From a bacterium (GTDB taxonomy: Bacteria > Patescibacteriota > Andersenbacteria > UBA10190), in NCBI GenBank assembly GCA_043811915.1, contig JBDRMS010000005.1, forward strand, positions 41,300 through 105,299: a stretch of 64,000 nucleotides of DNA, given 5' to 3'. Below, piece by piece: positions 4,916 through 21,862 of the stretch; the stretch's first letter is position 1, and each line of letters opens with the position of its first letter. The notes beneath the pieces are model-generated. The model was not told the DNA's origin. It worked only from the letters and a program-made list of their open reading frames with translations, and searched no databases. The position numbers were made by a program, and so were the translations under genes.

Positions 4916-4919
4916 CCCC

Positions 4920-6169: not shown

Positions 6170-6176
6170 AAATTTA

Positions 6177-6365: not shown

Positions 6366-6431
6366 ATATTTAAGTTAAGTATTAGGTATTGATGTAGCAC
6401 TACATCCTATACTACTACATAAAAAATCCTG

Positions 6432-6920
6432 TCAAGATTTGTTTTTGTAATTATCCTTCACCTCCACCGCGTCCAGCCCAAGCTCGCAAAAAATCTCCTC
6501 GTATTTTTTTCGAGCCTCATCAATTTTTGTCACTCGCTCCATGCCATCCATTTTTTGTACCGATTTCTCTCCGTATTCTCGCACCACATCCCGCCAGGCG
6601 AGACGATGAATCAGCTCATCCCAGAAAGTCTCGTCGTCGTACTCTTGCCGCAAGCTCTCCACGTCCGTTAATCCTTCAAACTGGCGTGTGGGAAAGAAAC
6701 GACCCTCATTCATAAGCTCATCATCAACATACTTCGAAAATCCAAATTTCTTGGCGTGCGAGAAAATATAATCTTCAATTTCTTCATATTCCTTCTTCCT
6801 GCCTTCTACCCTATAGGCATTCGCCATCCAGTTACCCAGATAGACAGCTTTCAACAACGCCAAGAACTGCTCCTTGGTAAGTTCAATAGTTCTCTTTTTG
6901 TTCTTGACAATGTTTGACAT
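6432..6920 (-). CDS. hypothetical protein, acidic (E/D-rich) and cytoplasmic
   Basis: 162-aa ORF with no recognisable motif. It lies in the hsdM-proximal islet. Confidence 0.4.
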   Translation of the reverse strand: MSNIVKNKKRTIELTKEQFLALLKAVYLGNWMANAYRVEGRKKEYEEIEDYIFSHAKKFGFSKYVDDELMNEGRFFPTRQFEGLTDVESLRQEYDDETFWDELIHRLAWRDVVREYGEKSVQKMDGMERVTKIDEARKKYEEIFCELGLDAVEVKDNYKNKS

Positions 6921-6994
6921 ACACGTACAATGTAAATAGCCCTCGGGTGCCTCACCGCCGTATCCATTCGGCGCGCATAAGCACCCGGGCTTTT

Positions 6995-7441
6995 TTATGG
7001 CAAAGATAATCGCTTAATTTCTCCATAGGTTAAAACACGATTAGCCTTTCTTTTACCCCTCAAAACCTGAAAACATACATTGTGAGCCGATGAGCTCTTG
7101 CCGATTTCACTAATCTCAAAAGGGGGCACCACCCCATCACCGCGACTCCACATTTCTAAAAACATACTAACAAAAGCACGTTCTTTGCCCGCGTACTCCC
7201 TGTCAAGTCTAATACTCAACTTATCACCCACGCCCGCGTACCTAAGTAACAAAACCACACCTGCCATAAAAACGCGGTATCGGAAAAGCTTAGGTCTGCC
7301 AATCAGGCGAAAATCTTCCTGTAATTTTCTCTTCACCCTGCTCGGCAAAACTACAACATACTGAATATCATTGGACAATCCTATAATTGTGTCTCTGCTC
7401 ATTTGTTCAATTTTTATCGATTGGTCTACTTCAACTCTCAT
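6995..7441 (-). CDS. hypothetical protein translationally coupled to hsdM
   Basis: 148 aa. Its start overlaps the hsdM stop by 4 nt. It has no HsdS-like conserved segments that I can recognise. Confidence 0.4.
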   Translation of the reverse strand: MRVEVDQSIKIEQMSRDTIIGLSNDIQYVVVLPSRVKRKLQEDFRLIGRPKLFRYRVFMAGVVLLLRYAGVGDKLSIRLDREYAGKERAFVSMFLEMWSRGDGVVPPFEISEIGKSSSAHNVCFQVLRGKRKANRVLTYGEIKRLSLP

Positions 7442-8985
7442 AACAACATATCCAAATCATCAACAATTCTTTTCTCTAACTTCCTTCCCTCTTTGAATAA
7501 ATCTCCCAACTCTCCCTTAAATCGCTTCATCTTTTTCTCAAACGGCTCGCCATCGTCATCGTCTTTATCTTCCGTACCAACGTAGCGGCCAGGGTTAAGC
7601 GAATAGCCGGCTTCGCGAACCTCATCAAGTGTTGCCATCTTACACAACCCTTTCACGTCTTCATATTTTTTTGCTCCTTTCTCGACTCGATAGCTGCGCA
7701 CAATGCCGGCAATCTGCTCTATCTGCTCATCCGTCCAATCCCTATGCGCCCGATCAACTTGCCGATAAATATTCCGCGCGTCGATAAACAAAATTTTATC
7801 TTTGCGATCTGCCTTCTTCCCCTTATCCAAAAACCACAACGTAACCGACAACGGCACATTGTAAAACATGTTCGGACCAACAGCCACCATAACATCAATT
7901 ACACCGTCTTCGATAATCTTCTTGCGAATTTCTTTCTCACTATGCCCAGCGTCGCTAGTAGCATTAGACATCACGAACCCGGCCCGGCCCTTGTCTTTCA
8001 AAGAAGCTAGAAAATGCTGAATCCAAATATAGTTGCCGTTATCTGCCCGCGGCACCCCGTACGCAAACCGCGGATCATCCTTAATCCGCCCCATGTCAAT
8101 TCCTTTCACATTGAACGGGGGATTAGCCATGGTGAAATCAAACTTGCCCAGGCTGCGATGCAAATCCTCATAATACGTATTGCCCTGCTTTATATCACCC
8201 GACAGCCCATGAATTGCCAGGTTCATCTTGGCAATGCGAATAGTCTGCTCCGTCTTCTCCTGCCCATACAGTGATATCTCCCGAGACGCTTTTGTTTTTT
8301 TACCATTTTCCAGATGTCGTTTAACAAACTCGTGCGACTGCACAAACATACCGCCCGACCCACAAGCCGGGTCATAAATCTTGCCGTGATATGGCTCAAT
8401 AACCTCAACAATCAGCTTAACAATCGAAGTAGGCGTAAAAAACTCCCCGCCTCGTGACCCATCAGCCAACGCAAACTTACCCAGGAAATATTCATAAATC
8501 CTACCGAACGCGTCACCCTCAATGCCATCGGGAATCTGATTAAAGTTTTTTAGCAACGTAATTAACGTATTGTTATCCAGCTGGTTATAATTATTCGGCA
8601 ACACCCCGGCCAATTCCTTGTTTTCCTCCTCAATCATCTTCATAGCCTCATTCACTGCCTTGCCAACATCAGTTCCTTCAGGAAGAGATATTAAATGTGA
8701 AAAATGTGCTTCATCAGGAATATACAAAACTCCTCGCGCTTGATAATTAGTCGCCGTCACCGGCCGCTGCCGCCGCGTCTTGCGCTTTTCTCTCTCTTTT
8801 TCTATCTCTTCCCTCGCTGTCACAAACCGTACATCGGCGAATTTCAAGAAAATCAAACCTAAAACCGGCTCGGCAAACTCATTCAGCCGCAGCGGCGACT
8901 CCGCCCTCATCTTTCCCGCCGCTTCCCACAATCGACTCTCCAGTGATTTTTGCTGCTTTTCTTTTTTTGTTTTTGCTTTAGCCAT
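7438..8985 (-). CDS. hsdM: type I restriction-modification system N6-adenine DNA methyltransferase subunit
   Basis: 515 aa. Features are an HsdM_N-like start (LWEAAGKMR), the AdoMet motif DPACGSGGMF, and the catalytic NPPF (FTMANPPFN). No hsdR or hsdS is present in the window. Confidence 0.85.
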   Translation of the reverse strand: MAKAKTKKEKQQKSLESRLWEAAGKMRAESPLRLNEFAEPVLGLIFLKFADVRFVTAREEIEKEREKRKTRRQRPVTATNYQARGVLYIPDEAHFSHLISLPEGTDVGKAVNEAMKMIEEENKELAGVLPNNYNQLDNNTLITLLKNFNQIPDGIEGDAFGRIYEYFLGKFALADGSRGGEFFTPTSIVKLIVEVIEPYHGKIYDPACGSGGMFVQSHEFVKRHLENGKKTKASREISLYGQEKTEQTIRIAKMNLAIHGLSGDIKQGNTYYEDLHRSLGKFDFTMANPPFNVKGIDMGRIKDDPRFAYGVPRADNGNYIWIQHFLASLKDKGRAGFVMSNATSDAGHSEKEIRKKIIEDGVIDVMVAVGPNMFYNVPLSVTLWFLDKGKKADRKDKILFIDARNIYRQVDRAHRDWTDEQIEQIAGIVRSYRVEKGAKKYEDVKGLCKMATLDEVREAGYSLNPGRYVGTEDKDDDDGEPFEKKMKRFKGELGDLFKEGRKLEKRIVDDLDMLL

Positions 8986-9001
8986 AATAACTATCTCCTA
9001 A

Positions 9002-9405
9002 GACTCAATCCTCTCCACCGCCAGCAACTGTTCCAACGAAGTCCTGACTTGCCTCAAATCATTCTCCGTCAACGCTGGATTCAACATCCACAACTGCTTC
9101 GGCCGATTAAACGACCTCCCTTCCTAGTCCACATCAATCGTACCCGCTTTTATGATCAACGGCATACCATCACGCTTAGCAAACGAACTCAAAACACCAC
9201 TAATCTCACGCCCACTCAAAGAAACAATCTCACCCAAGTCATCTGAATTAAACAAACCCTTCTTTTTTGAGCGCATCAACACCATGTGTGACAAAATTTT
9301 CATCGCCACCCGCGAATAATCCCCAAAGTATCCTATATCATATCTACTACCACCACTCATACGGTCGTAGTATATCGCGTCCGCGTAGTGGAAATCAACA
9401 CTCAC
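9002..9405 (-). pseudogene. possible disrupted gene: a 93-codon ORF followed in-frame by TAG and 41 more sense codons
   Basis: The minus-strand frame reads ...KAGTIDVD-TAG-EGRSFNRPKQLWMLNPALTENDLRQVRTSLEQLLAVERIES-TAG. The second stop ends 14 nt before the hsdM start. Confidence 0.2.
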
Positions 9406-9650
9406 CTATACACCCCTTGCCGCTGCCCGACACGGATAACCAAAACCAGCAGCAACTTTCTTTTGGTATAAATTATTCGGTAAGATCCAACTCGTATCGA
9501 ATAGTAGCCTCTGTAATCACCACGCAGCTTTTTGCCCCTGTATGGATCCTCCCCAATAAACACCAACGCCGCGTCAATCCGCCGTTGATGTTTCCTGGGT
9601 ATTTTTTCGAGATCTCTTTTTGCGCTTCTTGTTAACTCTACGCGATGCAT
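9402..9650 (-). CDS. relE: RelE/ParE-family type II toxin
   Basis: MHRVELTRSAKRDLEKI ... RVGSYRIIY ... VIRVGQRQGVY gives the RelE/ParE core. The start is taken at the internal Met (MHRV) instead of the longest ORF. Confidence 0.7.
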   Translation of the reverse strand: MHRVELTRSAKRDLEKIPRKHQRRIDAALVFIGEDPYRGKKLRGDYRGYYSIRVGSYRIIYTKRKLLLVLVIRVGQRQGVYR

Positions 9651-9954
9651 AAACTTCCTTTCCTTTGTCGGCCAGCACATAGCCATGCTCGGCCAGGATG
9701 TCTTCCAAGGAAACTGTTTTCCCTTGCCTTAAATCCTTCTCTGCTTCTTCAACGTCCTTATCTAAATCAGGAAATTGATTCATAACTTCAATAGTCTCCT
9801 GCCAGGATTCAAACTCCTCGGCCGATAGCATAACCACTTTCGCCCGACCCTTCTCGGTCAAAATATAAATAGTCCCTGGTTTTTGCACCTCCTTAGCCAG
9901 GTCGAAAATTCGCTTGCGGGCCTCTGTAAGGGATATGGTATTTCTTGAGTCCAT
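9574..9954 (-). CDS. Phd/YefM-family antitoxin with a Lys/Arg-rich C-terminal tail
   Basis: MDSRNTISLTEARKRIFDLAKEV...YILTEKGRAKVVMLSAEEFESWQETIE is a typical Phd/YefM N-terminus. It lies immediately upstream of relE, with an unusually long overlap of about 77 nt. Confidence 0.55.
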   Translation of the reverse strand: MDSRNTISLTEARKRIFDLAKEVQKPGTIYILTEKGRAKVVMLSAEEFESWQETIEVMNQFPDLDKDVEEAEKDLRQGKTVSLEDILAEHGYVLADKGKEVYASRRVNKKRKKRSRKNTQETSTAD

Positions 9955-9998
9955 AAGATTTTCTTTTAGGATATGTACATTATAACGTACGTTACAAA

Positions 9999-10703
9999 TC
10001 AAAGCAACCCATTCTCCTTAAAACTATACACCCGCGTCTTGCTAAAAATGACATGGTCCAGCAGCTGAATGCCCATTAACTTCCCTGCTTCAACCAGACG
10101 CTTAGTCACCACAATATCCGCCTCGCTTGGGCATGGATCCCCCGACGGGTGATTATGCGCCACCGCGATATGCGTCGCGTTCCGGCGGATAGCCGCGTCA
10201 AACGTCTCTCTGGGGTGCACCAGGTTAGCGTTCACTGTTCCCACCGCTATCCTGTCCACCCCCAACACCCTGTTCCGGTTATCAAACGACACCACAAAAA
10301 AGTTTTCCTTCTTATAATTCCCCACCAGGGGACTAACCACGGCAAAAACATCCTGGGCTGAAGTTACCGCTTTGCTTTTATTCCTATTCTCTTTTCCGCT
10401 CACGTCCTCCTTAACCACCCGCCGCGCTATTTCCAGGCATGCTTTCAATTGCAACGCCTTAGCCGGCCCCAGCCCCGTCACCTCCTGCAACTGTTCCAGT
10501 GAAGCATCTACCACGCCGCGCAAAGACCCGAAGCGGGACAAAAGTTCCTGCGCCAGGTGTATTACCGACTGGCCCGCTACCCCGCGCCCCAGCACCACGG
10601 CCAGCAGCTCCTGCGCCGACACCGCGTCCGGCCCCAATCGCTTAAGCCGCTCCCGCGGCCGCTCCTCCGCCGGCATATCCCTTACCGTAAACGACCCCGC
10701 CAT
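9999..10703 (-). CDS. radC: RadC-family JAB/MPN domain protein
   Basis: Helix-hairpin-helix region (ELLAVVLGRG...LGPAKALQLKA) plus the JAB motif HNHPSGDPCPSEAD. The start is set at MAGSFTVRDMPAEERPRERL. Confidence 0.85.
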   Translation of the reverse strand: MAGSFTVRDMPAEERPRERLKRLGPDAVSAQELLAVVLGRGVAGQSVIHLAQELLSRFGSLRGVVDASLEQLQEVTGLGPAKALQLKACLEIARRVVKEDVSGKENRNKSKAVTSAQDVFAVVSPLVGNYKKENFFVVSFDNRNRVLGVDRIAVGTVNANLVHPRETFDAAIRRNATHIAVAHNHPSGDPCPSEADIVVTKRLVEAGKLMGIQLLDHVIFSKTRVYSFKENGLL

Positions 10704-10806
10704 ATACTCTCTATTGTACCAGCTCCCATAGACGGCGGCACGCCATACTTGCCAAAGCAGGAGTTTTGGATTATCCATAACATTCACGTTAAAGTTTCCT
10801 ATATAT

Positions 10807-11898
10807 ATGAACTTCGCCGTTATTGAATATACTAGCAAGTCAGGGCAGGTCTGGCGACACAGACCCGGTCAGCCTAATTACTTGCAAGACCCGGCCAAAG
10901 TGATTGATCCTACCAGCTTTGGCTGCTACGTTTCGGCCCTGGCCGGAGAGCATATACCTCTTACAAAGCTGATCGGAACCGGCAGCTTGCTCAAAAGAAT
11001 CATTAAGAAATTGACCGGCTCCTGGCCGCAAAATTACTCACTCGAATATTTAAGAAAGTTCGATTGTCTCATAGTTGTCCACCAAATCAGCAACGCCCAC
11101 GAGGTCACCGCCTTTGTTGAGCGTCTGAAGCGGGAACTGCCCCGCCTCTTTATTTTCGGTGTGCCCACCCAGCCTTATGGCATATTAAAACCGCACCTGG
11201 AAAAGAACGACCGGGCCAGGCATAACTTTGTGGAATACATGAACGCCTGCGACGTCTTTCTCACGGTAGTAAAAGACACAAAATCGTGGTATGAATCTTT
11301 GACGACTACGCCGGTAGAATATTTACCCCAGATATATCCTGCCCACTTCGCTGCTAAATTTTTCAAAGCCCAACAACAAAAAGATAAAGTACTGTTCGTC
11401 GCTGGCGTAACCTCCCGCCCCGAAATTATAAGAGGACTTAGAGTAGCCCGAGCCTTACAAAAAGAATTTCCCGATTATATTATCCAGGTTACCCGGATTC
11501 CCGGCATCGACATGAACCTTTCAGAATTGGCCGGCGCGAATTATGAAGTTTTGCCCTTCCAGCAGTGGCGTCAGCATTTACCCGAGCTGGCTAAAAAGAT
11601 GCTCGTTATTAATACCGACTACACTTTAACCCGCGGCCGTGTGCAGGTGGACTGTGCCGCCGTCGGCACTCCCAGCCTGGGCGCCAACTCCGACGGGCAA
11701 ACCGACTTATATCCACTTCTTGCCTCAAGACCAGAAACATCAGTCGAAGAGCTTGTTAGTTTGGGACAAAAACTACTCACCGACGAAACTTACTATCAGC
11801 AAACAGTCCAAACAGCCCAGCACAAACTGCAAAAATACGATTACGAAGAATCAGCCGTCCGCCTTCAACTATTAGTCAAGTCATATAGAAAAATATGA
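10807..11898 (+). CDS. putative glycosyltransferase (GT-B-like), first gene of the glycan locus
   Basis: 363 aa. The call rests only on its position heading a run of GT genes and on a Rossmann-like second half; no diagnostic motif was found. Confidence 0.3.
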   Translation: MNFAVIEYTSKSGQVWRHRPGQPNYLQDPAKVIDPTSFGCYVSALAGEHIPLTKLIGTGSLLKRIIKKLTGSWPQNYSLEYLRKFDCLIVVHQISNAHEVTAFVERLKRELPRLFIFGVPTQPYGILKPHLEKNDRARHNFVEYMNACDVFLTVVKDTKSWYESLTTTPVEYLPQIYPAHFAAKFFKAQQQKDKVLFVAGVTSRPEIIRGLRVARALQKEFPDYIIQVTRIPGIDMNLSELAGANYEVLPFQQWRQHLPELAKKMLVINTDYTLTRGRVQVDCAAVGTPSLGANSDGQTDLYPLLASRPETSVEELVSLGQKLLTDETYYQQTVQTAQHKLQKYDYEESAVRLQLLVKSYRKI

Positions 11899-12914
11899 AG
11901 CGCTTTCTCATTAGACACCTGGGAAATATGGGAGATATGGTCTTCTTTATCCCCCCCGTGCTGGCCACATTAAAAAAACACTACCCCGGCTGCCATATAA
12001 CTTTTGTCACTGTCTGGGGTTTCAAAGATAAAAAAGGGCAGTGGGGGAAAAGAGACCAGGGTGGCTTCTCCATCCACCTCATAATGACCAACCCTCATCT
12101 TGATCAACTCGTTCACTACCACGACACCAAGCTGTCACTGGATGGCAAAATATGCCGCGAGGATGGTCAAAGTTTTCCCACCTGGAACAAAAAATACTAT
12201 GACCAACAAAAAAACTCTGGCCGGTATGATCAGGTTTTCGAGCTGGATTTTGGCTTGAAGGTTGACGATAATCCTATTCAGCGCATGTATGAAACTATTG
12301 GCTTGCCTAATGAGACCCTCACTGATTATAAAATTTACTTTACGGACCGGGACCTGGCAGCAGCCCAGGCCGTTATTGATGACGCCCCTCGCCCGCGCAT
12401 AGTCCTCCTCGAAGGACTGGCCAGTACCACCACCCGCGGATGGGATCCCGGAAAAATACCAGCTCTCGAGCAAGCCATCAAAGAAGTATATCAGGTTGAT
12501 CCTATCTGGTTCGGCGGCAACTATATTCCGGATTACCAGGGGCGTTCTCTTTCTTTACGTGAAAACATTGCCACTTTGTCTTATTGTGATGCTGGCATCG
12601 GGGTTATGTCAGGCCCCATCCATTTTGCTGCCGCCGCCGACCTCCCCACCCTCACTTTATATTGCGACCACCCCATACATCGTGCTGCACCCGCCTATTT
12701 TCTCGGGAAAAAACACCGCACTTTACTCGGTCCTTCCACCCGGCCCTACCAGTTGCTTAAGAACGAGCAGCCAGCCATTGCCCTAACGCCCGCCGAGATC
12801 TCGCGTCAGCAATTCAAAAGTTGGAATCAGCCTGGTCGCCAGACCACCAAAACATGTCTGTCAGTAATTACCGTAGACGAAATCATGCTAGTCTTAAAAG
12901 AAATGTTATCGTAA
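11895..12914 (+). CDS. GT9 heptosyltransferase-family glycosyltransferase
   Basis: The N-terminus LIRHLGNMGDMVFFIPPVLATLKKHYPGCHITFVT matches the RfaF/WaaC-type motif (I-x-x-S-x-x-GD-x-x-x-x-P-x-x-x-x-LK-x-x-YP-x-A-x-I). The C-terminal segment is DAGIGVMSGPIHFAAA. Confidence 0.7.
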   Translation: MKRFLIRHLGNMGDMVFFIPPVLATLKKHYPGCHITFVTVWGFKDKKGQWGKRDQGGFSIHLIMTNPHLDQLVHYHDTKLSLDGKICREDGQSFPTWNKKYYDQQKNSGRYDQVFELDFGLKVDDNPIQRMYETIGLPNETLTDYKIYFTDRDLAAAQAVIDDAPRPRIVLLEGLASTTTRGWDPGKIPALEQAIKEVYQVDPIWFGGNYIPDYQGRSLSLRENIATLSYCDAGIGVMSGPIHFAAAADLPTLTLYCDHPIHRAAPAYFLGKKHRTLLGPSTRPYQLLKNEQPAIALTPAEISRQQFKSWNQPGRQTTKTCLSVITVDEIMLVLKEMLS

Positions 12915-12916
12915 TT

Positions 12917-13621
12917 ATGAATTCTCCCTGGGTAGTCATTCCCACTTACAATGAAAAAGGCAATATCGAACGCATGATTTCTTCCCTTTTCAGCCAAGGG
13001 GTCAACAATCTGTCGGTCCTTATTGTCGACGATAATTCCCCCGACGGAACAGGTGGCATAGTTCGTCGCCTGCAAGCAAGCTATCCCAACCTCCATCTGG
13101 AAATTCGGGCTAAGAAATCCGGTCTGGGGCGAGCTTATATTCACGGCTTCCGCTATGCGCTTGATCACGATGCTACTAATGTAGTCCAAATGGACGCCGA
13201 TTTCTCTCATGATCCCAAGGATGTTCCCCGCTTATTACAACAATTAGACCAATATGACGTTGTCATTGGCTCCCGTTACTCCCACGGCATCAGTGTTATC
13301 AACTGGCCCTTAAGCCGCTTACTATTAAGTACCGCCGCCAACTATTACGCCCGTCTGGTTACCGGCCTGCCGTACAAAGATGTCACCGGTGGTTTCCGTG
13401 CCTGGCGTGCCTCCTCCCTTGCCGCTATAAAACCGGAAAAGGTCAAGGCCGACGGCTATGGTTTTCAGATTGTTATGACCCACCGCGCCTGGCGACTAAA
13501 GCTTTCTTTTTCAGAAATCCCCATCATTTTTACCGAACGCCGTGAGGGTCAATCTAAAATGAGTAAATCCATAATGTGGGAAGCATTTTGGTTAGTATGG
13601 AAACTAAGACTTTTTGGTTAG
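12917..13621 (+). CDS. GT2 polyprenyl-phosphate glycosyltransferase (DPM1/CsbB/GtrB-like)
   Basis: WVVIPTYNEKGNIERMI ... LIVDDNSPDGT ... QMDADFSHDP ... VIGSRY is the canonical dolichyl/undecaprenyl-phosphate sugar synthase pattern. The start is at the internal Met right after the upstream stop. Confidence 0.85.
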   Translation: MNSPWVVIPTYNEKGNIERMISSLFSQGVNNLSVLIVDDNSPDGTGGIVRRLQASYPNLHLEIRAKKSGLGRAYIHGFRYALDHDATNVVQMDADFSHDPKDVPRLLQQLDQYDVVIGSRYSHGISVINWPLSRLLLSTAANYYARLVTGLPYKDVTGGFRAWRASSLAAIKPEKVKADGYGFQIVMTHRAWRLKLSFSEIPIIFTERREGQSKMSKSIMWEAFWLVWKLRLFG

Positions 13622-15774
13622 GACTCCTAGTACTTGTCCTCGTCTTTACATTCTATCCCCTTTGGCAGGGTAAATTTTATGCCGTCGGCGATATGCGCGA
13701 CGTCTTCATCCCTCTGGAAACTTTCTTTCGTCAGGAAATGCTTGCCTTTCGTCTTCCCTCCTGGAATCCGGACATCGCCTGGGGTTTTCCTGTTATTGCC
13801 TCCGCCCAAATTGGCTTTTTCTACCCACCCTTGCTTCTTCTTCGCCTTTTTCCTCCCTGGTTGTACATTCCTCTTATCCTGCTAGGTCACTTGGCTGCTT
13901 TGGCCATTGGCACATTTTTCTTCTTTCGTGCCCTTAAAATTACTCACGCGGGCTCTTATTTTGGCAGCATAAACTACACTCTGGGCAGCTTTATAATTCA
14001 GCATCTTTCTCACCTCAACATAATCATTACCACTGCCTGGCTCCCCTGGCAGCTTCTTGCTGTCCACAAAATAACTGCCAGGCCCAGGCTTGCTATCAGA
14101 CAGATTATTATACTGTCCCTCGTATTCGGGCTTCCTTTCCTGGCCGGGCAATTACAAATACCGGCCATGATGGCTATCGTATCCGCCGCTTACTTCTTTT
14201 ATCTTCGTTTTCAACAGCGCAAAAATATTTTTCGTCCCGTCCTTCTCCTGCTGTTGATTGCGGCGCTTTCCTTTCTTATTGCTGCCGCTCAACTTCTGCC
14301 CACTCTTGAGCTAATCACGCAGTCCTCTCGTGGACCCTCTGGCGACTTTGATATCCAGCAAGCCAACCAATATAGTTTTCCTCTTTATCACCTCCCCACG
14401 TTGATCTGGCCGCGTTTTTATGGGAATGACAGCACTTATTGGGGCGCCCGTCTGCAAGTCGAACAAGGCATATTTATCGGGTCAATCCCCCTAATACTTG
14501 CCCTATGGTTTATTGTTACAAGAATTAGCCGGCATATAAATCGATTCTGGCTTTTTCTTCTAATCATTTCTTTTTTTCTCGCCCTAGGCTCCCTTTCCCC
14601 ATTCAGACTTCTCGGCCTTGAGCCTTCCTTGTGGGTTTTTTCCGCCCCCGCCCGGTGGCTACTCTTCACAACCTTTTCTCTGTCCTTGTTTGCAGCTCGG
14701 GGGCTCGACCTGGCGCCAAAACACACGTGCTCGCTTAGACGTTTTGCTTTTTTTGGCGCCATTATTATTACTGCCATTGCCTTAATCGGCACGCTTGTCT
14801 TATTCACTGCCGACGACTCGCTTCTTAAAAATCTGGCCGCTAATGCCTTTTGGGGTAATCTTAATCGCCTCCCGGACTACTATACAGAGAAACTCAACAG
14901 TCTTATTAACAGCGCCCGCTCCAGTTCCTTTTCCCTGGCCGCGCCGGCTGCCGCTCTCCCCGTAATATTTTTAAGTGCTCTCCCCTTTATTCTTACCAGA
15001 CGACGCTGTTTGCCCGTTATACTTGCTATCACTACTGTCGAACTTGTCATTATCGCTGCCACAACCATCCCCGCCACCAGTTGGAATAATATACTTACAC
15101 CGCCCGATACCATCGCCGCTCTTCCCGCTGTCGTACTGGAAAAACAGGCTCGCATTTTTTCTTTCCGCCCGCCCGGCGACACCGGGCAATATTTCAGCAA
15201 CCCGGAAACCAGGCCCGACGCTAAAACGCGTGCCCAGCTCCGAACATTGCTTACGCCGCTAAGCCATGCCATCTATCACCTTCCCGGTATTGAGTGGCCG
15301 GCTTCTCTTCACCTGGCCTATCATGCTGACGTGCTTGATAGCATCCGCAGTTCTGACAGCCAGTGGCTTAAAGACGTAAACCGCGCTGAGCAATTGAACA
15401 TTGGCGCCGTACTCGTGCCCGCAAATGATGGCGTTAGCATCTACCAACTGTCCCCTGCCCCCCGCGCTTCCACCCAAGGCGCCAGTACATATCAGACCAT
15501 CAGTCCTACGCACACCAGGATATCAGTGGATGTGCCCGCCGACGCCGCTCTGACCATTCGCGACAGTTACTACCCTGGCTGGCGCGCCTATATAGACGAC
15601 GTCCGTACCCCTATCGCCCAAGCCGACGCAATCTTTCGTCAGTTAGCCATCCCTGCCGGCCGCCACCAGGTTGACATGTACTATCGCCCCCTGGCCCTGT
15701 ACCTCGGTCTGGTTTTATCGGCCCTGACTATTACCTTTTCCGCTGTGGTTATATTAAAGTCAGAACGAATATGA
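13597..15774 (+). CDS. YfhO-like GT-C-type polytopic membrane glycosyltransferase
   Basis: About 725 aa with roughly 12-14 N-terminal TM helices, a large C-terminal extracytoplasmic domain and a final TM helix. It lies directly downstream of a CsbB-like GT2, which is the classic CsbB-YfhO arrangement. Confidence 0.55.
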   Translation: METKTFWLGLLVLVLVFTFYPLWQGKFYAVGDMRDVFIPLETFFRQEMLAFRLPSWNPDIAWGFPVIASAQIGFFYPPLLLLRLFPPWLYIPLILLGHLAALAIGTFFFFRALKITHAGSYFGSINYTLGSFIIQHLSHLNIIITTAWLPWQLLAVHKITARPRLAIRQIIILSLVFGLPFLAGQLQIPAMMAIVSAAYFFYLRFQQRKNIFRPVLLLLLIAALSFLIAAAQLLPTLELITQSSRGPSGDFDIQQANQYSFPLYHLPTLIWPRFYGNDSTYWGARLQVEQGIFIGSIPLILALWFIVTRISRHINRFWLFLLIISFFLALGSLSPFRLLGLEPSLWVFSAPARWLLFTTFSLSLFAARGLDLAPKHTCSLRRFAFFGAIIITAIALIGTLVLFTADDSLLKNLAANAFWGNLNRLPDYYTEKLNSLINSARSSSFSLAAPAAALPVIFLSALPFILTRRRCLPVILAITTVELVIIAATTIPATSWNNILTPPDTIAALPAVVLEKQARIFSFRPPGDTGQYFSNPETRPDAKTRAQLRTLLTPLSHAIYHLPGIEWPASLHLAYHADVLDSIRSSDSQWLKDVNRAEQLNIGAVLVPANDGVSIYQLSPAPRASTQGASTYQTISPTHTRISVDVPADAALTIRDSYYPGWRAYIDDVRTPIAQADAIFRQLAIPAGRHQVDMYYRPLALYLGLVLSALTITFSAVVILKSERI

Positions 15775-16958
15775 AGCTGCTTTTTTCCGCCTTCACCGGC
15801 TATAACTTAAGAGAACTACTGCTGCCGCTTACTCCCCTCATTAACCAGGACAAGAATATCAATGAAGTTATCGTTGTCAGTCCGGCCGCTCCCTACCGCG
15901 ATCAGCTGTTCGCTTATCTCCCCGCTAAATACAGGTTTTTAACCGATCAACCCGGCGTTAGCGGCTACAAAAAATTATTATCTGACCACCAACCAGATTG
16001 CGTCGTTACCCCAACTCCCGGCCTGGAAGAAAAAGACATTCCTCTACTGCAAGCAGCCAGGCAAATCGGCATCCCCACCGTTACTTTCATAGCCAGCTGG
16101 GACAATGTATATAAATTAGCCAGGCGCATAAAAATTAGAAAATATAAACAACAATACGCCGTTGCTGATCACTTTGCTGTCTGGAACGCCATGAATAAGA
16201 AACATCTTCTTAACATCGTCCCGCGCCTCGCGCCACAGCAGATAACAGTCACCGGTGCCCCCCGCCTCGACTTCCTGTCCGACCCGGTCAAAATTCCCAG
16301 TCGGGAAACTTTGCTGCAGCGTCTGAAAATTCCTGATGACGGGAAAAAGTTAATCCATGTAGCTTCCACGGAACTATATCCCAGCGACTACATCATCAAA
16401 GCCATCGCTGACCGTGGCGACTGTCACATTCTGTTGTCAGTCCACCCGGGAGGAAATATTACCTTCCACCGCCGTTATGCGGAGCCCTACCGCGCTTTCG
16501 TTCGCTATTCATTTGGCCGCCGCCGGCATTCCCCTGTGCCGGAGTTTACTTATAACCCCACCCTGGATGATCTTCGCCTGCACGCTGCCCTATTTCTTCA
16601 TAGTGATCTCCTTATTAATCATTCTTCCACCGTTACCATTGAATCTTTGCTGGCTGACACACCTGTTATTAATGTCAAATATGGCAAACCCCTGGACTGG
16701 TGGCGCTGGCACCGCTCTATGGTTTACCGGGATTTCAATCAGCACGCCAGAATTATTATCGATTCCGGCGCCACCGCCGTTGTCCATTCTCGCCGCGAGC
16801 TCATTAATGCCGTAGCCGCCAATCTGCAGGATCCGGCCATGCATCAAGCTGCCCGCCGCGCCCTGGCTATCAAAATGGTCACCATTACCGACGGCACCGC
16901 CGGCCGGAGACTACTTGACCTCATCAAAAATGTTGCCGACTATAAAGGTACACCATGA
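15771..16958 (+). CDS. putative GT-B-fold transferase (TagB/TagF- or capsule-biosynthesis-like)
   Basis: 395 aa with a two-Rossmann-like layout and a His-rich segment HILLSVHPGGNITFH. The assignment is tentative. Confidence 0.3.
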   Translation: MKLLFSAFTGYNLRELLLPLTPLINQDKNINEVIVVSPAAPYRDQLFAYLPAKYRFLTDQPGVSGYKKLLSDHQPDCVVTPTPGLEEKDIPLLQAARQIGIPTVTFIASWDNVYKLARRIKIRKYKQQYAVADHFAVWNAMNKKHLLNIVPRLAPQQITVTGAPRLDFLSDPVKIPSRETLLQRLKIPDDGKKLIHVASTELYPSDYIIKAIADRGDCHILLSVHPGGNITFHRRYAEPYRAFVRYSFGRRRHSPVPEFTYNPTLDDLRLHAALFLHSDLLINHSSTVTIESLLADTPVINVKYGKPLDWWRWHRSMVYRDFNQHARIIIDSGATAVVHSRRELINAVAANLQDPAMHQAARRALAIKMVTITDGTAGRRLLDLIKNVADYKGTP

Positions 16959-17821
16959 CTTTCCATTGCATTGCCTTCCCCGTTCAGATACAAACCGTCA
17001 ACTTTTTAAGAGCTGCCTGTATTAAGCGTAAAATTGATTTTAATTTAATCAATCCCGCGGCAGTTGATTACACCAATACCAGCAACATCCCGATGGCCGG
17101 TGATATCCTTTATCGTGCACCCACCGTACAATCTAACAGTAAAGATGCCGGGGTTGTTGAAGGATTTCTGCTCCACGACCAGGTTACAACTTTCTATCAC
17201 TCATATCAGCGTGCTCTCTGTCGCTTCGTCAGCTCTTTTGTAGTTCACCAGAAAGCCAATCTGCCCATTCCCAAAACCATTCCCCGCCTTAGTTGCAACC
17301 GGAAACTGCTCAAAAAATATGTCGACTATGTCGGCGGTTTTCCCGTCATTATCAAAGCCACCGGCGGCAGCCACGGCATCGGCGTTATGAAAGTAGACTC
17401 TATGGAGTCACTTTTTTCCATTGTCGACTATCTGCACCAGAGTCACCAGCACATAATTATGCGGCAATTTATTGATGTCGCAACATCCGCCCGCCTCATT
17501 GTTCTAGGCAACCAGATAGTCTCCAGCATAGAATATGCCGCTCCCGACGATGACTTTCGCTCCAATGTGGGAATTTTTCCTATCGTGAAAGCCAAGGAAT
17601 TCCCTCCGGAAATTCAAAAACTGGCCATCGAAGCCACGCAGCTATTAGGTGTTGATTTTGGTGGCGTCGACATTTTAATCGACAATGAAAGTAAGCCCTT
17701 CATCACCGAAGTCAACTTTCCCTGTAACTTCGCCCGCGCCCAAAAAACTACCGGCATTGATATTGCCGGTCTGATGGTTGACTTTCTTGTTCAGAAATCT
17801 AAACGGTCGACTGGTGACTAA
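16955..17821 (+). CDS. ATP-grasp domain ligase (RimK-like)
   Basis: The ATP-grasp motifs are VIIKATGGSHGIGVMKV, LIVLGNQIVSSIEY and GVDFGGVDIL...ITEVNFPCNF. Confidence 0.7.
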   Translation: MTFHCIAFPVQIQTVNFLRAACIKRKIDFNLINPAAVDYTNTSNIPMAGDILYRAPTVQSNSKDAGVVEGFLLHDQVTTFYHSYQRALCRFVSSFVVHQKANLPIPKTIPRLSCNRKLLKKYVDYVGGFPVIIKATGGSHGIGVMKVDSMESLFSIVDYLHQSHQHIIMRQFIDVATSARLIVLGNQIVSSIEYAAPDDDFRSNVGIFPIVKAKEFPPEIQKLAIEATQLLGVDFGGVDILIDNESKPFITEVNFPCNFARAQKTTGIDIAGLMVDFLVQKSKRSTGD

Positions 17822-18473
17822 ACGAGGTGTTGTAACATTTGTTTTTGACGACGGCTATGAACGTGTTTACCAAAACGCCCTACCCCTGCTTAATAAATAC
17901 AACATGCCGGCTGTATTCGCCGTTTCTCTTGATGCCCCCAAATTAACCAGGGGAAAAGAGTTCAGAAAAATAAGGCCCTGGCAGGGCTGGCTGCCCCTTC
18001 GTCACCAGGGTCACGAAATAGCCTCCCACACCGTCACTCATCCCGACTTGACTAAAATCGATGCCGCCCGGCTTGACCATGAGCTGCAACAATCAGCCCG
18101 GTTACTCAATACCACTACTCTCGTTTATCCAGGCGGTGCATTTAATGATGATGTAGTGCGAGCAGCCAGCAAATATTACACTGCCGCCCGCACTATCAAA
18201 AAAGGGCTGGAATCCCTGCCGCCCCGGGATGCTCTACGCCTCAAGGTTAAGAAAAACTATTCACGTAACAACTTCTCCGTTTTAAAAGCTAATCTTCGTG
18301 TCTTATGGGCTTATCTCACCAATTCCTGGATCATCGAAACCTTCCACATGATCGACGATGATGATCAACAGATGGTACACACTGTTAAAACAAGCGATTT
18401 CTCTAATCACCTAGCTTTTGTCAGCCGTCTTCCCATTCAAGTTAAAACCATCTGCGACTGTCTCGGGAAATAA
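17778..18473 (+). CDS. polysaccharide deacetylase (CE4/NodB homology domain)
   Basis: The NodB motifs are TFVFDDGY, HTVTHPDL and LVYPGG. The 5' end overlaps the preceding gene, so the true start may be a non-ATG codon. Confidence 0.7.
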   Translation: MTFLFRNLNGRLVTKRGVVTFVFDDGYERVYQNALPLLNKYNMPAVFAVSLDAPKLTRGKEFRKIRPWQGWLPLRHQGHEIASHTVTHPDLTKIDAARLDHELQQSARLLNTTTLVYPGGAFNDDVVRAASKYYTAARTIKKGLESLPPRDALRLKVKKNYSRNNFSVLKANLRVLWAYLTNSWIIETFHMIDDDDQQMVHTVKTSDFSNHLAFVSRLPIQVKTICDCLGK

Positions 18474-19409
18474 CATATCAACAATATCTCGGGCCGGGTT
18501 GCGTTTATCCCCTCGCGTTGGTTGCAAATGAAGTGTCAAATCAGGAGCCGAATTCAGTTCAATAATCCTGCCGATAGATGATTTTATATCAGGTGTTATG
18601 CAGTCAATCCCCACTACTGAAGCATCAAAAAGTTCAGCCACCCTCATCGCTTCAGATTTGATTGTCTCGCCAATTGTGTTCGTTATATCAACCACGGTAC
18701 CTCCTAAATGAGCGTTTACCGCCGCAGCCAGCACAACCTGGCGTCCCTTTTCCGGCACGCTTTCCAAATCCAAACCCTGTTTACTTAATATCTCGCTCAC
18801 CATCTCTCCCAATTTGACCCGGCGGCCAGCCGGCGCCGAATCATTTTTACTTTTTATCAGTTGTTCAACGTTACTCACGCCATCACTCGCCACTCCCGCC
18901 GCGAAACGCTGTACCGCATACACAATTCTTTTATCCAGTACTAGTAGTCGCATTTCCTGCCCGTCAACATGTTCCTGGCACACAACTCTTCGTTCGCCCG
19001 CACTACTCTTTTGCTCTCTGGCAAATTTCACGGCTCGAGCTACCTGGCCAGGCGTAGTTATGTTCGGAGTAACACCGTTGCCTTGTACTCCGCAAACCGG
19101 TTTGATTACAATTTTTCTGTGCTTTTCAAGAAACCTTAAAATCATATTCAAATCATCAGTATAAAGAGTAGCCGGCACCGGAAAGCCCAGCTGTTCAAGC
19201 ATATTTATAGCCAAAGCCTTGTTCGAGAAAATTTTGTAAGTAACACTGCCAGACTTATTAGAACAGCTTTGACAAACAAGTTCCCGGTGTCCATTCAGCT
19301 CCAATACCGCAATGTTTCGGTTTATATCCTCCATTGTTGTGGCCTTTATGCCACGCCGACAAGCCTCTTTGACAATAATTTCAGTATGTGCACTAATACC
19401 ATTCTGCAT
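18411..19409 (-). CDS. ATP-grasp domain ligase (cyanophycin-synthetase or D-Ala-D-Ala-ligase-like)
   Basis: The ATP-grasp segments are KIVIKPVCGVQGNGV, RVVCQEHVDGQEMRLLVLDKRIV and GIDCITPDI...IIELNSAPDL. Confidence 0.6.
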   Translation of the reverse strand: MQNGISAHTEIIVKEACRRGIKATTMEDINRNIAVLELNGHRELVCQSCSNKSGSVTYKIFSNKALAINMLEQLGFPVPATLYTDDLNMILRFLEKHRKIVIKPVCGVQGNGVTPNITTPGQVARAVKFAREQKSSAGERRVVCQEHVDGQEMRLLVLDKRIVYAVQRFAAGVASDGVSNVEQLIKSKNDSAPAGRRVKLGEMVSEILSKQGLDLESVPEKGRQVVLAAAVNAHLGGTVVDITNTIGETIKSEAMRVAELFDASVVGIDCITPDIKSSIGRIIELNSAPDLTLHLQPTRGDKRNPARDIVDMLFPETVADGFNLNGKTADKS

Positions 19410-19452
19410 AAAAGACTATTAAGATTCATTAAAGTACCACTACTCACCACCT

Positions 19453-20241
19453 TTGTCACTTATTATGTCGATTTCCGCCATAATTATCACTAAAAACGAG
19501 GCTCGCAACATTGCCCGCTGTTTGCGCAGCCTTAGCTTTACCGATGAACAAATCGTTGTTGATTCCTTCAGCCGTGATAGAACCATTCAATTGGCCAACG
19601 ACCTTGGCGCCTTGGTATTCAGTAAAGCATGGTCCGGCTACGGCCCGCAAAAAAACTACGGACGGGAACAGGCTGGGGACGACTGGGTACTTTCTATAGA
19701 CGCCGACGAAGAAGTAACACCAAAGTTAAGAAAAGAAATTATTGCCGCTGCCGGCCATGGCAACAAAAATTTTTACTGGTTGCGCATAGTCACAATTTTC
19801 CTTGGTCACCCGCTCAAGCATCTATACGGCCACAACATGCGCCTTTTCAGAAAAGACAGCGGCCAATGGACAAATTCATGCGTCCACGAACAAGTTATCA
19901 ATAAACAGGGTCAATTAATAAAGTTACATGACCGAAATTCCGCCGTTCTCAAGTCTCCGCTTCTTCATCACTCACACACAACTATAAACTCCTATCTCAA
20001 AAAGATGCACCGCTACACAACGCTGGACGCCCAACAAATGCACAAAACCGGTCGCCATCGCTCCGGCCGGCCGGTCCAACCCGCTTTTTATCTGCCTTAT
20101 TACTTGTGCCTCCGGCAATTCATCAAGCTATACTTCTACCGCCGCGGCTTGTTAGACGGCTACGCCGGCTTCATCTGGTGCGTTTTGTCAGCCTACTACG
20201 AATATGAAATGGCTAAAAAATACTTGAAACTATGCGCATAG
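19453..20241 (+). CDS. GT2 glycosyltransferase (WaaE/KdtX-like)
   Basis: ISAIIITKNEARNIARCL ... VVDSFSRDRT ... SIDADEEV is the pattern of the LPS-core-type GT2 family. Confidence 0.8.
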   Translation: MSLIMSISAIIITKNEARNIARCLRSLSFTDEQIVVDSFSRDRTIQLANDLGALVFSKAWSGYGPQKNYGREQAGDDWVLSIDADEEVTPKLRKEIIAAAGHGNKNFYWLRIVTIFLGHPLKHLYGHNMRLFRKDSGQWTNSCVHEQVINKQGQLIKLHDRNSAVLKSPLLHHSHTTINSYLKKMHRYTTLDAQQMHKTGRHRSGRPVQPAFYLPYYLCLRQFIKLYFYRRGLLDGYAGFIWCVLSAYYEYEMAKKYLKLCA

Positions 20242-21386
20242 TTCACAATTGCTTGCGTTATCCACCAGCTACCGGCGGGGTAGAAACATATGTTCAGGAA
20301 TTAGTTGAGCGCACCAGAAGTCTGGACGCTAATCGTGACGTGCGTGTTCTCACTAGTAAGTTGCGCACCCATCACCCCATCTCCGAACTAACTCCCGAAC
20401 TCCTGATCGCTGACCCCATGTATGTTCAACGCCTTCACCACCTGCGCACTCCTTTCTTCGCCTATCCCCGGCTCCAGGCCTTGCCATATTATTTAAATCA
20501 TCACGAGCCTGACATTATTCATGGGCACAGCTTTTGGTATCAACCCGCCGACACCGCAGCCCGTTTTGCCCAAAAACACAATATTCCATTCATTTTTCAC
20601 CCCTATTACTACCAGCATGGTGTCCGTCAAAAAGCCGGCTGGCAGCTGTACAAACGCACTATTGGTAAAAACACATTTGCTGCCGCTAACATTGTTGTTG
20701 TCATCTCGCCCTATGAGCAGTTGTTAATCGAAAAAGCTGGCTTTCCCGTTAAACGATTTGAACTTATCCCTCCCGGTATTGATTTACTCTCTTTCCAAAC
20801 CAGTCACGATAATCCCTTTGCCAAACGAAACATCACTGGCCCCACCCTTCTCTCTGTCGGCCGTATTGCTCATGATAAAGGATTCGACGATGTCGTAGCT
20901 CTTCTCCCCGTTCTCATCAAACAATTTCCTGCTCTGCAATATGCCATAGTCGGCGAAGATTTTGGTGCCAAAGAAAAACTTATCAGTGAGGCTCAAAAAC
21001 TCGGTGTTAAAGAACGCGTCCACTTCCTTGGTAAATTGCCGCAAAGTGAACTTATTGGCGCCTATCAGCATGCCATAGCCTTGGTTCACCCCAGTTACTA
21101 TGAGGCATTCGGCATTGTCATGGCTGAAAGCCTGGCAGCCGGAAATCCCATTGTCGCTCGCAATATAGCCGCCATACCCTTTGTCGTCCCTCATCAAAAA
21201 GCTGGCCTGCTGTTTAATAATAAACAGGAACTTCTTTATTCACTCACCAGCATCCTGTCTGATCGGGATCTACGAAAGAAATTAGCCAGTCAGGGTTTTA
21301 GGCATGTTCAACAAAACTTTACCTGGGACAAGTCAATAAAAAAACTGATTGCTTTGTACCAGGAATTTAGTACTAGCAATCAGTGA
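20232..21386 (+). CDS. GT4 glycosyltransferase
   Basis: The C-terminal E-x7-E region is PSYYEAFGIVMAESLAAGNPIVARNIAAIPFVV. Confidence 0.8.
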   Translation: MRIVHNCLRYPPATGGVETYVQELVERTRSLDANRDVRVLTSKLRTHHPISELTPELLIADPMYVQRLHHLRTPFFAYPRLQALPYYLNHHEPDIIHGHSFWYQPADTAARFAQKHNIPFIFHPYYYQHGVRQKAGWQLYKRTIGKNTFAAANIVVVISPYEQLLIEKAGFPVKRFELIPPGIDLLSFQTSHDNPFAKRNITGPTLLSVGRIAHDKGFDDVVALLPVLIKQFPALQYAIVGEDFGAKEKLISEAQKLGVKERVHFLGKLPQSELIGAYQHAIALVHPSYYEAFGIVMAESLAAGNPIVARNIAAIPFVVPHQKAGLLFNNKQELLYSLTSILSDRDLRKKLASQGFRHVQQNFTWDKSIKKLIALYQEFSTSNQ

Positions 21387-21811
21387 AGAAGCATAACTAG
21401 CGGCTCAACGCATTTGTTTGTTCCAGCCAGATGTTTGTATACCTCATCCATCATTGGCTGCCCGTCATGATGAACAATAACCTGTCCATTATCACCAACC
21501 AAGTGCTGCAGTCCATGATAATCATCATACCGGGCTACCAGAAATGCGATTTTTGGCTCCGGCCTAACATGAATCAGCATTGAAGCCAATCTTTTCATCT
21601 CCGGTGTGTCCGGTGGAAACACGTCGTCCAGCATCACACCATCCATTAGTCCTCTATTCTTCATATATTCCATCAAATCTTCAGGCTCAAGCGCCACCAC
21701 TTCGCAACCCAGTCCACATAGTTTGTCTGCCCAATCATGTCTTGCCTCGCAATTCGACGTTCTTGTTATGATAACAACAACACGTCGTCTTTCTCTGTCG
21801 TCTGGGAACAT
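21380..21811 (-). CDS. hypothetical protein, possibly receiver/flavodoxin-like; the only antisense gene in this stretch
   Basis: 143 aa. The alternating beta-alpha pattern (RVVVIITR...CEVVAL...MLDDVFPPDTPEM...IAFLVARYDD) loosely resembles a CheY-like fold but lacks its conserved acidic pocket. Confidence 0.35.
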   Translation of the reverse strand: MFPDDRERRRVVVIITRTSNCEARHDWADKLCGLGCEVVALEPEDLMEYMKNRGLMDGVMLDDVFPPDTPEMKRLASMLIHVRPEPKIAFLVARYDDYHGLQHLVGDNGQVIVHHDGQPMMDEVYKHLAGTNKCVEPLVMLLH

Positions 21812-21827
21812 TTTTTCGCTCCTTCAG

Positions 21828-21855
21828 TTGACAAAAGAACTGCCCTGTCTACAGT
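21828..21855 (+). promoter_or_regulatory. candidate sigma70-type promoter for the downstream GT9 gene
   Basis: TTGACA (21828-21833), a 16-nt spacer, then TACAGT (21850-21855). The first ATG is at 21863, so the transcript may be leaderless or have a very short leader. Confidence 0.3.
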
Positions 21856-21862
21856 AGAGCCT

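Follow-up and report, generated by a model that had tools for sequence, protein, structure and literature searches.

A glycan-biosynthesis island in a Candidatus Andersenbacteria-like bacterium with three probable lipid-phosphate-sugar and GT-C glycosylation systems

Results

Three glycosyltransferase gene sets in one gene island

We analyzed a 64,000-nucleotide stretch of bacterial DNA (contig JBDRMS010000005.1 of GenBank assembly GCA_043811915.1, positions 41,300 to 105,299 of the forward strand), hereafter the window, in which an earlier note based on the letters alone had pointed to a lipid-phosphate-sugar synthase gene beside the gene of a large membrane transferase. That pair, at 12917..13621 and 13597..15774, is referred to here as set 1, and two further sets of a small family 2 glycosyltransferase (GT2) and a polytopic transferase of the GT-C class lie within 27424..32460 (set 2) and 33587..36287 (set 3). 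Glycan-synthesis genes crowd 10.8-37.5 kb of the window on both strands, and it is likely that they form part of a glycan-biosynthesis island of about 50 kb that houses three multi-component transmembrane glycosylation systems. Almost all homologs of the three large membrane proteins are from metagenome-assembled genomes (MAGs) labelled Candidatus Andersenbacteria, Patescibacteria or 'bacterium', and a 124-kb MAG contig in GenBank carries the exact window proteins. On these sequence matches the host is an uncultured, ultra-small bacterium of the Candidate Phyla Radiation (CPR), Candidatus Andersenbacteria-like, rather than a Firmicute.

Set 1 pairs a DPM1-type synthase with a YfhO-family membrane protein

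The set 1 donor synthase (12917..13621, + strand, ATG start) is a soluble GT2 of 234 aa and of DPM1/Ppm1 type, with a Pfam Glycos_transf_2 match at E 2.6e-30. By far its top match in the Protein Data Bank (PDB) is the Pyrococcus furiosus dolichyl-phosphate mannose synthase (PfDPMS, 5mlz, E 1e-27), where residues 6-230 align with 27-246 over the catalytic domain and the helices that follow it, and where the 'MDAD' metal-binding motif (DAD being residues 93-95) is identical. ArnC-type undecaprenyl-phosphate (Und-P)-sugar synthases come next at ~1e-7, and GtrB structures (5ekp) are not among the PDB matches at E<=1e-3. Enzymes of the CsbB/GtrB type are proteins of ~310-340 aa with two C-terminal transmembrane (TM) helices. 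The 234-aa protein has the GT-A domain with its DxD and lacks this C-terminal feature; Kyte-Doolittle hydropathy, used throughout to locate hydrophobic and TM segments, reveals none in it. Because it has no TM segment and does not match GtrB, the protein is classed from its sequence as a polyprenyl-phosphate hexose synthase of DPM1/Ppm1 rather than CsbB/GtrB type, with a putative CsbB-like role, so that the DPM1 half of the label 'DPM1/CsbB-like' in the earlier note stands and the CsbB half does not. PfDPMS itself carries four C-terminal TM helices that are absent here, whereas eukaryotic DPM1 and the catalytic domain of mycobacterial Ppm1 are TM-less like the set 1 enzyme. GenBank labels the protein MFH1353926.1 'polyprenol monophosphomannose synthase' through its PGAP pipeline, and no NCBIfam equivalog model is passed.

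As the note had described, this gene runs directly into that of a YfhO-like protein, with an overlap of 25 nt. The set 1 transferase (13597..15774, + strand, ATG start) is a 725-aa YfhO-family protein, a predicted GT-C membrane glycosyltransferase, that scores 68.9 bits against Pfam YfhO (PF09586, curated cut-off 28.5 bits, E 4.2e-19) in two matched stretches. A precomputed PF09586 match lies on nearly all of 120 homologs, and it is identical (100%) to a GenBank protein named 'YfhO family protein'. Inspection of the hydropathy profile reveals ~10-12 hydrophobic segments within residues 1-494, a hydrophilic region of ~200 aa at 495-697 and a terminal TM segment at 698-723. That is to say, the protein has the YfhO-type layout of a polytopic N-terminal module, a hydrophilic C-terminal domain that would face the outside, and a final TM helix; sides of the membrane were inferred throughout, with positive-inside reasoning for the loops of the set 2 and set 3 GT-Cs. 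Just after TM1 lies the stretch 'GDMRD...E', in which, among 38 homologs, E41 never varies and D32 and D35 reach at least 90% conservation, and the catalytic acidic residues of GT-C enzymes sit right after the first TM helix (PMC8035078). The sole NCBIfam match is a weak one to PgfM1 (20.9 bits). By its family and layout, the 725-aa protein would probably pass a sugar from a polyprenyl-P-sugar to an acceptor outside the membrane.

The set 1 genes belong to a run of abutting + strand genes (10807..11898, 11895..12914, 12917..13621, 13597..15774, 15771..16958, 16955..17821 and 17778..18473) that looks, from its junctions, like one translationally coupled operon. To examine whether this arrangement is kept elsewhere, window proteins were compared by tblastn with related loci, labelled L001 onward. 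Of the related loci, all CPR (Candidatus Andersenbacteria-like), 27 include sequence upstream of the YfhO gene, and in 22 of these a GT2 gene precedes it; the two adjoin directly in most of the 22 and lie 2-3 kb apart in L001 and L010. The adjacency is therefore not due to chance, and it is kept across many genomes while the surrounding gene content differs. The usual order in relatives is MurJ, a 363-aa protein of no assigned family, a GT9-like protein, GT2, YfhO, a 395-aa GT-B-like protein and, in some, an ATP-grasp ligase, followed by deacetylase, GT2, GT4 and GT9. This order persists at 40-60% protein identity, and that of the 363-aa and GT9-like genes is kept in ~22 loci.

Sets 2 and 3 add a small membrane partner and GT-C proteins without a Pfam model

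The earlier note held that the same synthase and transferase logic recurs twice in the window, and both further sets are real, each composed of a GT2, a DUF2304 protein and a GT-C. In set 2, the donor synthase (31741..32460, - strand) is a 239-aa PpgS/GacI/AglJ-like GT2 with a DAD motif (Pfam GT2, E 1.4e-28). Its top NCBIfam scores, for PpgS (110.8 bits) and AglJ (91.6 bits), are both below cut-off, that of the PpgS equivalog being 370 bits, and its PDB matches are PfDPMS (E 5e-13), then ArnC and GtrB. Immediately downstream, with an 11-nt overlap, the small membrane partner (31365..31751, - strand) encodes a 128-aa DUF2304 protein (PF10066) of GacJ/Rv3632 type with three hydrophobic TM segments (E 4.9e-26, 91.5 bits against a curated cut-off of 25.5). 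The range 31365..32460, which the note had read as one GT2, thus holds a GT2 and a DUF2304 gene. A single CsbB-like GT2 with C-terminal TM helices was rejected both there and at 33590..34632, since each range holds two open reading frames (ORFs) that differ in frame and are annotated as separate genes in GenBank and in relatives.

Co-operonic with this pair is a short-chain dehydrogenase/reductase (SDR) of the nucleotide-sugar epimerase/dehydratase kind (30392..31375, - strand; Pfam GDP_Man_Dehyd and Epimerase), whose NCBIfam matches to LegB, UDP-xylose synthase and ArnA-like models are all below cut-off. It probably makes the nucleotide sugar used by the set 2 GT2, and its matches suggest that a modified nucleotide sugar is supplied in an Arn-like way. 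The set 2 transferase (27424..29451, - strand) is a 675-aa GT-C that is distantly related to YfhO and bears a CBM35/CBM6-like beta-sandwich at its C-terminus, and its gene is the first of an operon with four GT4 genes. The membrane protein that the note placed at 27424..29478 is real, with its start most likely at ATG 29451 (675 aa, not 684), a Met conserved in at least 90% of homologs and used by GenBank. Neither Pfam nor NCBIfam matches the 675-aa protein. Profile-profile comparison of its family with the YfhO-like family gives 96% probability (E 1.7e-9, 262 columns), indicating that the two families are homologous, and its predicted model has the GT-C fold. D49 ('GGDPWQ'), after the entry helix, is invariant in 38 sequences.

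The GT2, DUF2304, SDR and GT-C genes are contiguous and co-directional in L043, and a methyltransferase gene is inserted into this order in L035, L004 and the window. Among 15 loci with flanking sequence, 13 have a GT2 and DUF2304 pair no more than ~4 kb from the 675-aa gene. In L003 (1..6311), the neighbours of the 675-aa homolog are two PMT/PMT_2-type GT-C genes and a 762-aa gene with no assigned family; small genomes of the Andersenbacteria type can thus hold five or more GT-C genes. The starts of the set 2 GT2 (- strand) and of the divergent GT4 at 32472..33590 (+ strand) are only 11 bp apart, and both promoters therefore lie inside coding sequence.

Set 3 begins with a 225-aa PpgS/AglJ-like GT2 (33587..34264, + strand; Pfam GT2, E 3.2e-24, DGD motif). 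The set stands as the note gave it, except that it starts at ATG 33587 rather than 33590, in an ATGA overlap with the stop of the upstream GT4 and in agreement with GenBank, and that a second DUF2304 ORF lies within it. The top NCBIfam scores of the GT2 are again below cut-off (PpgS 153.8 bits, AglJ 133.9 bits), and its best solved relative is PfDPMS (E 1e-6), followed by ArnC. The small membrane partner (34246..34632, + strand), immediately downstream with a 19-nt overlap, is a 128-aa DUF2304 protein (PF10066) with three hydrophobic helices (E 2.8e-13, 50.5 bits). The set 3 transferase (34629..36287, + strand) is a 552-aa GT-C from a family that Pfam does not model; its C-terminal domain, small and of alpha/beta type, is like that of AglB. 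The order GT2, DUF2304, GT-C, GT4 is kept in L004 and L005 down to 32% identity, and the GT2-DUF2304 pairing in L004, L005 and L036-L047.

The GT2s of sets 2 and 3 are 30% identical, and BLASTP finds no similarity between their DUF2304 proteins; the two pairs are accordingly old paralogs, and they probably make different donors. The presence of a dedicated DUF2304 partner in two sets, a pairing known only for Und-P-sugar synthases, also bears on whether the small GT2s might be ordinary cytoplasmic transferases that elongate a glycan on a lipid-linked oligosaccharide and lie beside GT-C genes through the dense packing of a small genome. Equivalog-level NCBIfam scores that all stay below cut-off would fit such a role, as would the at least four further GT2 genes of other types inside the island. 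With the DUF2304 partners, the similarity to DPMS over the full length, beyond the catalytic domain, and an adjacency that holds at 40-45% protein identity in many genomes with differing neighbours, we consider this role very improbable. Synthesis of polyprenyl-phosphate sugars remains the preferred assignment for the three GT2s: DxD is kept in all of them, PfDPMS is the best solved relative of each, and their best NCBIfam similarities are to PpgS, AglJ and a Dol-P-hexose transferase. The QXXRW motif, which the note had listed in the expected core, is a feature of processive GT2s and not of this class.

The large proteins are predicted GT-C transferases

Predicted models of both 27424..29451 and 34629..36287 show the GT-C membrane fold, and D32/D35, D49 and D98 each lie just after the entry TM helix of the respective GT-C. 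The large proteins are predicted GT-C enzymes and not transporters, and the Pfam YfhO match that the note had expected is borne out for 13597..15774, while the other two are not Pfam YfhO. Pfam scans of members of the GT-C families give scattered weak matches only (PMT_2, DUF6798, DUF1616). Sequence and profile searches of the PDB with all three families return nothing meaningful, and no YfhO-type structure is found by sequence.

The 552-aa family is sharply bounded, with ~385 clusters at 50% identity and most members of ~700 aa. D98 ('DVDPYHW'), after its entry helix, is invariant in 20 sequences, and the equivalent residue is invariant in 30 more distant ones. By hhalign, the family shows no significant match to the YfhO-like and 675-aa families; a deeper alignment reaches 28% probability only, with a common 'FPxxYxNxD...W' stretch that serves as a hint. 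In Foldseek, the 552-aa model is closest to the oligosaccharyltransferases (OSTs) STT3 and PglB, and it also resembles DPY19 and PMT enzymes. The protein itself contains neither WW nor WxD, no WWDxG-like motif is conserved in the family alignment, and an OST of the STT3/AglB/PglB type was rejected for want of WWDxG.

This structural likeness, together with the AglB-like C-terminal domain, bears on a broader alternative in which the GT-Cs act as polymerases, ligases or oligosaccharyl-transferases for a polyprenyl-diphosphate-linked glycan. The flanking GT4, GT9 and GT2 enzymes would build that glycan, Wzx or MurJ would flip it, the target would be peptidoglycan, lipid or protein, and the small GT2s would serve another step. 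It would also account for the three or four GT4 genes that always trail the 675-aa gene in one operon and for MurJ at the beginning of the set 1 operon in relatives. Besides the missing WWDxG, a GT2 of polyprenyl-phosphate-sugar-synthase type is tightly and widely linked to each GT-C, and the characterised YfhO enzymes take C55-P-monosaccharide donors (PMC5836110, PMC8035078); we regard this alternative as improbable.

Proposed route of sugar transfer and its acceptors

A scheme of synthesis, flipping and GT-C transfer is already established for multi-component transmembrane glycosylation (PMC8035078), and the three sets quite probably represent systems of this kind. In the first step, a GT2 at the cytoplasmic face would move one sugar from a nucleotide sugar onto a polyprenyl (undecaprenyl-type) monophosphate, assisted in sets 2 and 3 by the three-helix DUF2304 subunit, as GacJ assists GacI and Rv3632 assists PpgS. 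In the second, the polyprenyl-P-sugar would be flipped to the outer leaflet, with MurJ (1982..3538) and the Wzx-like protein (43319..44650) as candidate flippases. In the third, the polytopic GT-C (13597..15774, 27424..29451 or 34629..36287) would pass the sugar to an acceptor outside the membrane. Lipid carrier, flipping, direction of transfer, sugars and acceptors in this scheme are what we infer around directly observed family and fold assignments, first-loop acidic residues, operon structure and conserved synteny.

Several points weigh against this reading. All NCBIfam equivalog scores of the GT2s lie far under cut-off, so that the sugar specificity is not readable from them, and support for a GT-C fold of the 725-aa protein comes from its Pfam membership and from the modelled 675-aa family, to which it is homologous. 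Neither the Wzx nor the MurJ gene adjoins the GT2/GT-C sets; no GtrA/GtcA-type gene was seen in the window and no GtrA-like small four-helix ORF among its unassigned ORFs. Five YfhO-family loci (L016, L017, L020, L024 and L028) have neither the GT2 nor any further gene of the island, and their YfhO gene is probably a paralogous copy. The 675-aa homolog in L003 and the locus L042 likewise have no GT2 and DUF2304 pair nearby. Finally, most relatives have a single GT2 and DUF2304 pair between two GT-C genes, the window and L004 being the two-pair version, and in one-pair relatives there may be fewer distinct donors than GT-Cs. The earlier note is upheld in its three sets, which may stand for three distinct extracytoplasmic steps.

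As for the acceptor, a surface glycan built by the flanking GT4, GT9 and GT2 enzymes appears most likely. The CBM35-like ectodomain modelled on the 675-aa enzyme favours a glycan. Surface proteins are possible acceptors, and the same systems could act on Ser/Thr-rich regions, pilins or S-layer proteins instead of a polysaccharide, in parallel to Pgf of S. mutans (PgfS with YfhO-like PgfM1/M2) and to actinobacterial Ppm1/PMT O-mannosylation. The weak PgfM1 match of the YfhO-like protein and the DPM1/Ppm1 type of the set 1 GT2 agree with this, as do the likeness of the 552-aa model to OST, DPY19 and PMT enzymes, which act on proteins, and the PMT/PMT_2 genes near the homologous island in L003. 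The sets lie among GT4, GT9 and GT2 genes and genes for a deacetylase and for enzymes that modify sugars, none of the linked genes is a candidate for an acceptor protein, and the predicted CBM35/CBM6-like module suggests a glycan, so that protein acceptors seem unlikely, if less so than the alternatives above.

Neighbouring genes and other features of the window

Upstream of set 1 lie a 363-aa protein without a family match (10807..11898, + strand) and a 339-aa GT9-like protein (11895..12914, + strand) with a weak Glyco_transf_9 match (26.5 bits), a 4-nt overlap with the preceding gene and a 2-nt gap to 12917. Downstream, 15771..16958 (+ strand) encodes a 395-aa GT-B-like 'surface carbohydrate biosynthesis' protein, whose gene follows the YfhO gene in nearly all related loci. 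A weak Pfam Glyphos_transf match (27.3 bits) confined to its C-terminus had hinted at a TagF-like role in teichoic acids; this was dropped for a better NCBIfam match to BFO_1060/TIGR04396-type proteins (BFO_1060 family glycosyltransferase 64 bits, TIGR04396 40 bits, both below cut-off). The teichoic-acid acceptor that the earlier note had carried over from Firmicutes is not transferable, because the host is a CPR bacterium, and the one hint toward it is explained by this protein. Two ATP-grasp ligases bracket the polysaccharide deacetylase at 17778..18473 in the set 1 operon region (16955..19409): a RimK-like one (16955..17821, + strand) found in some relatives only, and one at 18411..19409 (- strand) resembling the ATP-grasp part of cyanophycin synthetase. 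The ligases may serve amino-acid modification of the glycan.

The MurJ-family flippase (1982..3538, + strand; Pfam MurJ, E 4.8e-65) heads the order MurJ, 363-aa protein, GT9-like protein, GT2, YfhO in L002, L006, L008-L014, L018, L019, L023, L025-L027, L029, L031 and L033, and is separated from the set 1 operon by ~7 kb of other genes in the window. Among the latter, on the - strand (7438..10838), are HsdM, a type I restriction-modification methylase (7438..8985), a Phd/YefM antitoxin (9574..10002) and RadC (9999..10838). Since MurJ directly precedes the 363-aa gene in most relatives, this suggests a defence/mobile segment of ~7 kb inserted between MurJ and set 1. Directly upstream of MurJ, 627..1985 (+ strand) encodes a 452-aa membrane protein without a family match, composed of an N-terminal TM helix, a hydrophilic domain of ~150 aa and about six or seven TM helices. 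In L002, too, MurJ is preceded by a gene of comparable size.

The Wzx-like protein (43319..44650, - strand; Pfam Polysacc_synt_3 and Polysacc_synt, E ~1e-12) is a candidate flippase for lipid-linked sugars or repeat units. Beside it, an HldE-like bifunctional kinase/nucleotidyltransferase (41788..43317, - strand; PfkB and CTP_transf_like) co-occurs with GT9 'heptosyltransferase'-family genes at 21737..22894 and 11895..12914 (both + strand), which, in an organism not expected to make lipopolysaccharide, hints at a heptose-containing surface glycan. Runs of sugar-tailoring genes at 44626..51626 and 53943..57020 (- strand) encode a GT2, a Zn-dependent dehydrogenase, two methyltransferases (one FkbM-type), a thiamine-diphosphate enzyme, an SDR and a 4,6-dehydratase, followed by E1 alpha/beta (transketolase-like) subunits and another epimerase. 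By their families, the genes of these runs suggest that a branched or otherwise unusual sugar is made. A 640-aa fusion at 57086..59008 (+ strand) joins an N-terminal GT2 domain to a C-terminal GT4 (Glycos_transf_1) domain. At the window edge (63170..63954, - strand), an SxtJ-like small membrane protein (Pfam SxtJ, 31.5 bits) is encoded beside an ORF whose translation, by eye, is like the C-terminal portion of a NodU/CmcH-type carbamoyltransferase.

An IS200-like Y1 transposase (38161..38817, - strand; Pfam Y1_Tnp, 29.9 bits), with the GT4 at 36284..37498 on one side and an asparagine-synthase-like gene at 38910..40799 on the other, is likely an insertion, since it is missing at that position in the syntenic L004 and L005. 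The window as a whole (1..64000) has an extreme strand asymmetry, with a GC skew of -0.238 on the + strand (G 11629, C 18881). Genes of the + strand (mean -0.20) share its sign with those of the - strand (mean -0.26), and the skew is therefore independent of transcription direction. Across related Andersenbacteria loci the skew runs from ~0 to |0.3-0.4|, and its signs fit the same genomic strand being C-rich.

Discussion

Comparison with characterised systems places set 1 nearest to CsbB/YfhO, which with GtcA glycosylates lipoteichoic or wall teichoic acid with N-acetylglucosamine (GlcNAc) in Bacillus subtilis, Staphylococcus aureus and Listeria (PMC5836110; PMC8035078). In both, a polyprenyl-P-sugar GT2 gene adjoins a gene for a Pfam YfhO-family GT-C with a large C-terminal ectodomain and a terminal TM helix. 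The set 1 GT2 differs in being DPM1/Ppm1-like and without C-terminal TM helices, the YfhO match to Pfam is moderate, and the window differs in showing no GtrA/GtcA gene and in coming from a CPR host without evidence of teichoic acids. The likeness of the GT2 to PfDPMS is accompanied by a YfhO-type partner, in contrast to the PMT-type partner of DPMS/Ppm1 systems.

Sets 2 and 3 are closer to GacI/GacJ/GacL of Streptococcus pyogenes and PpgS/Rv3632 of Mycobacterium tuberculosis, where a GT2 of ~225-240 aa is likewise followed by a DUF2304 protein, with a GT-C in the locus. The DUF2304 protein GacJ is a binding partner of the GlcNAc-P-Und synthase GacI and makes it more active, the mycobacterial GacJ homolog Rv3632 stimulates PpgS, and Wzx-family GacK is the proposed GlcNAc-P-Und flippase of streptococci (10.1101/180810); the island, too, has a Wzx-family gene. 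In contrast to GacL, the GT-Cs of sets 2 and 3 are not PMT_2-type: the set 2 enzyme is distantly related to YfhO and has a CBM35-like module, and that of set 3 comes from a family without a Pfam model. Set 2 also differs from Gac in the extra SDR enzyme of its operon. With scores well under the PpgS equivalog cut-off, the sugar need not be N-acetylgalactosamine or GlcNAc. Similarity to ArnA/ArnC/ArnT is at family level only, with no formyltransferase, aminotransferase or deformylase genes, and no lipid A in the organism. Three such pairs in one genome are known from B. subtilis and L. lactis (PMC8035078).

GenBank already gives correct names to the set 1 pair. New in this analysis are the GT-C assignment of two families annotated 'hypothetical protein', which provides them with a fold and a probable role, the identification of the DUF2304 proteins as subunits, and a conserved operon context in CPR. 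A literature search combining Patescibacteria and YfhO found no paper linking them within the library searched. The mechanism is textbook, and the gain lies in better annotation and in candidates for biochemistry rather than in a new principle.

CPR/Patescibacteria live attached to other microbes, and to our knowledge almost nothing about their cell envelope has been established by experiment; we know of no teichoic acids or outer membrane in the Andersenbacteria-type CPR, whose genomes are ~1 Mb. One such lineage nevertheless gives a large conserved gene island to surface glycans, three probable lipid-phosphate-sugar/GT-C decoration systems included; in Gram-positive bacteria, decoration systems of this kind set phage receptors and antigenicity. 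We tentatively propose, as a possibility rather than an expectation, that Andersenbacteria-type CPR possess a conserved, lineage-specific, three-lane machinery of extracytoplasmic glycosylation with two GT-C families that have no Pfam or NCBIfam model, of which the OST-like one without WWDxG would be supplied by a GacI/GacJ-type synthase, and that its acceptor may be an undescribed CPR surface glycopolymer or glycoprotein, possibly for host-cell attachment. The main interest of these findings is for CPR envelope biology and for the two GT-C families that stand outside Pfam and NCBIfam models.

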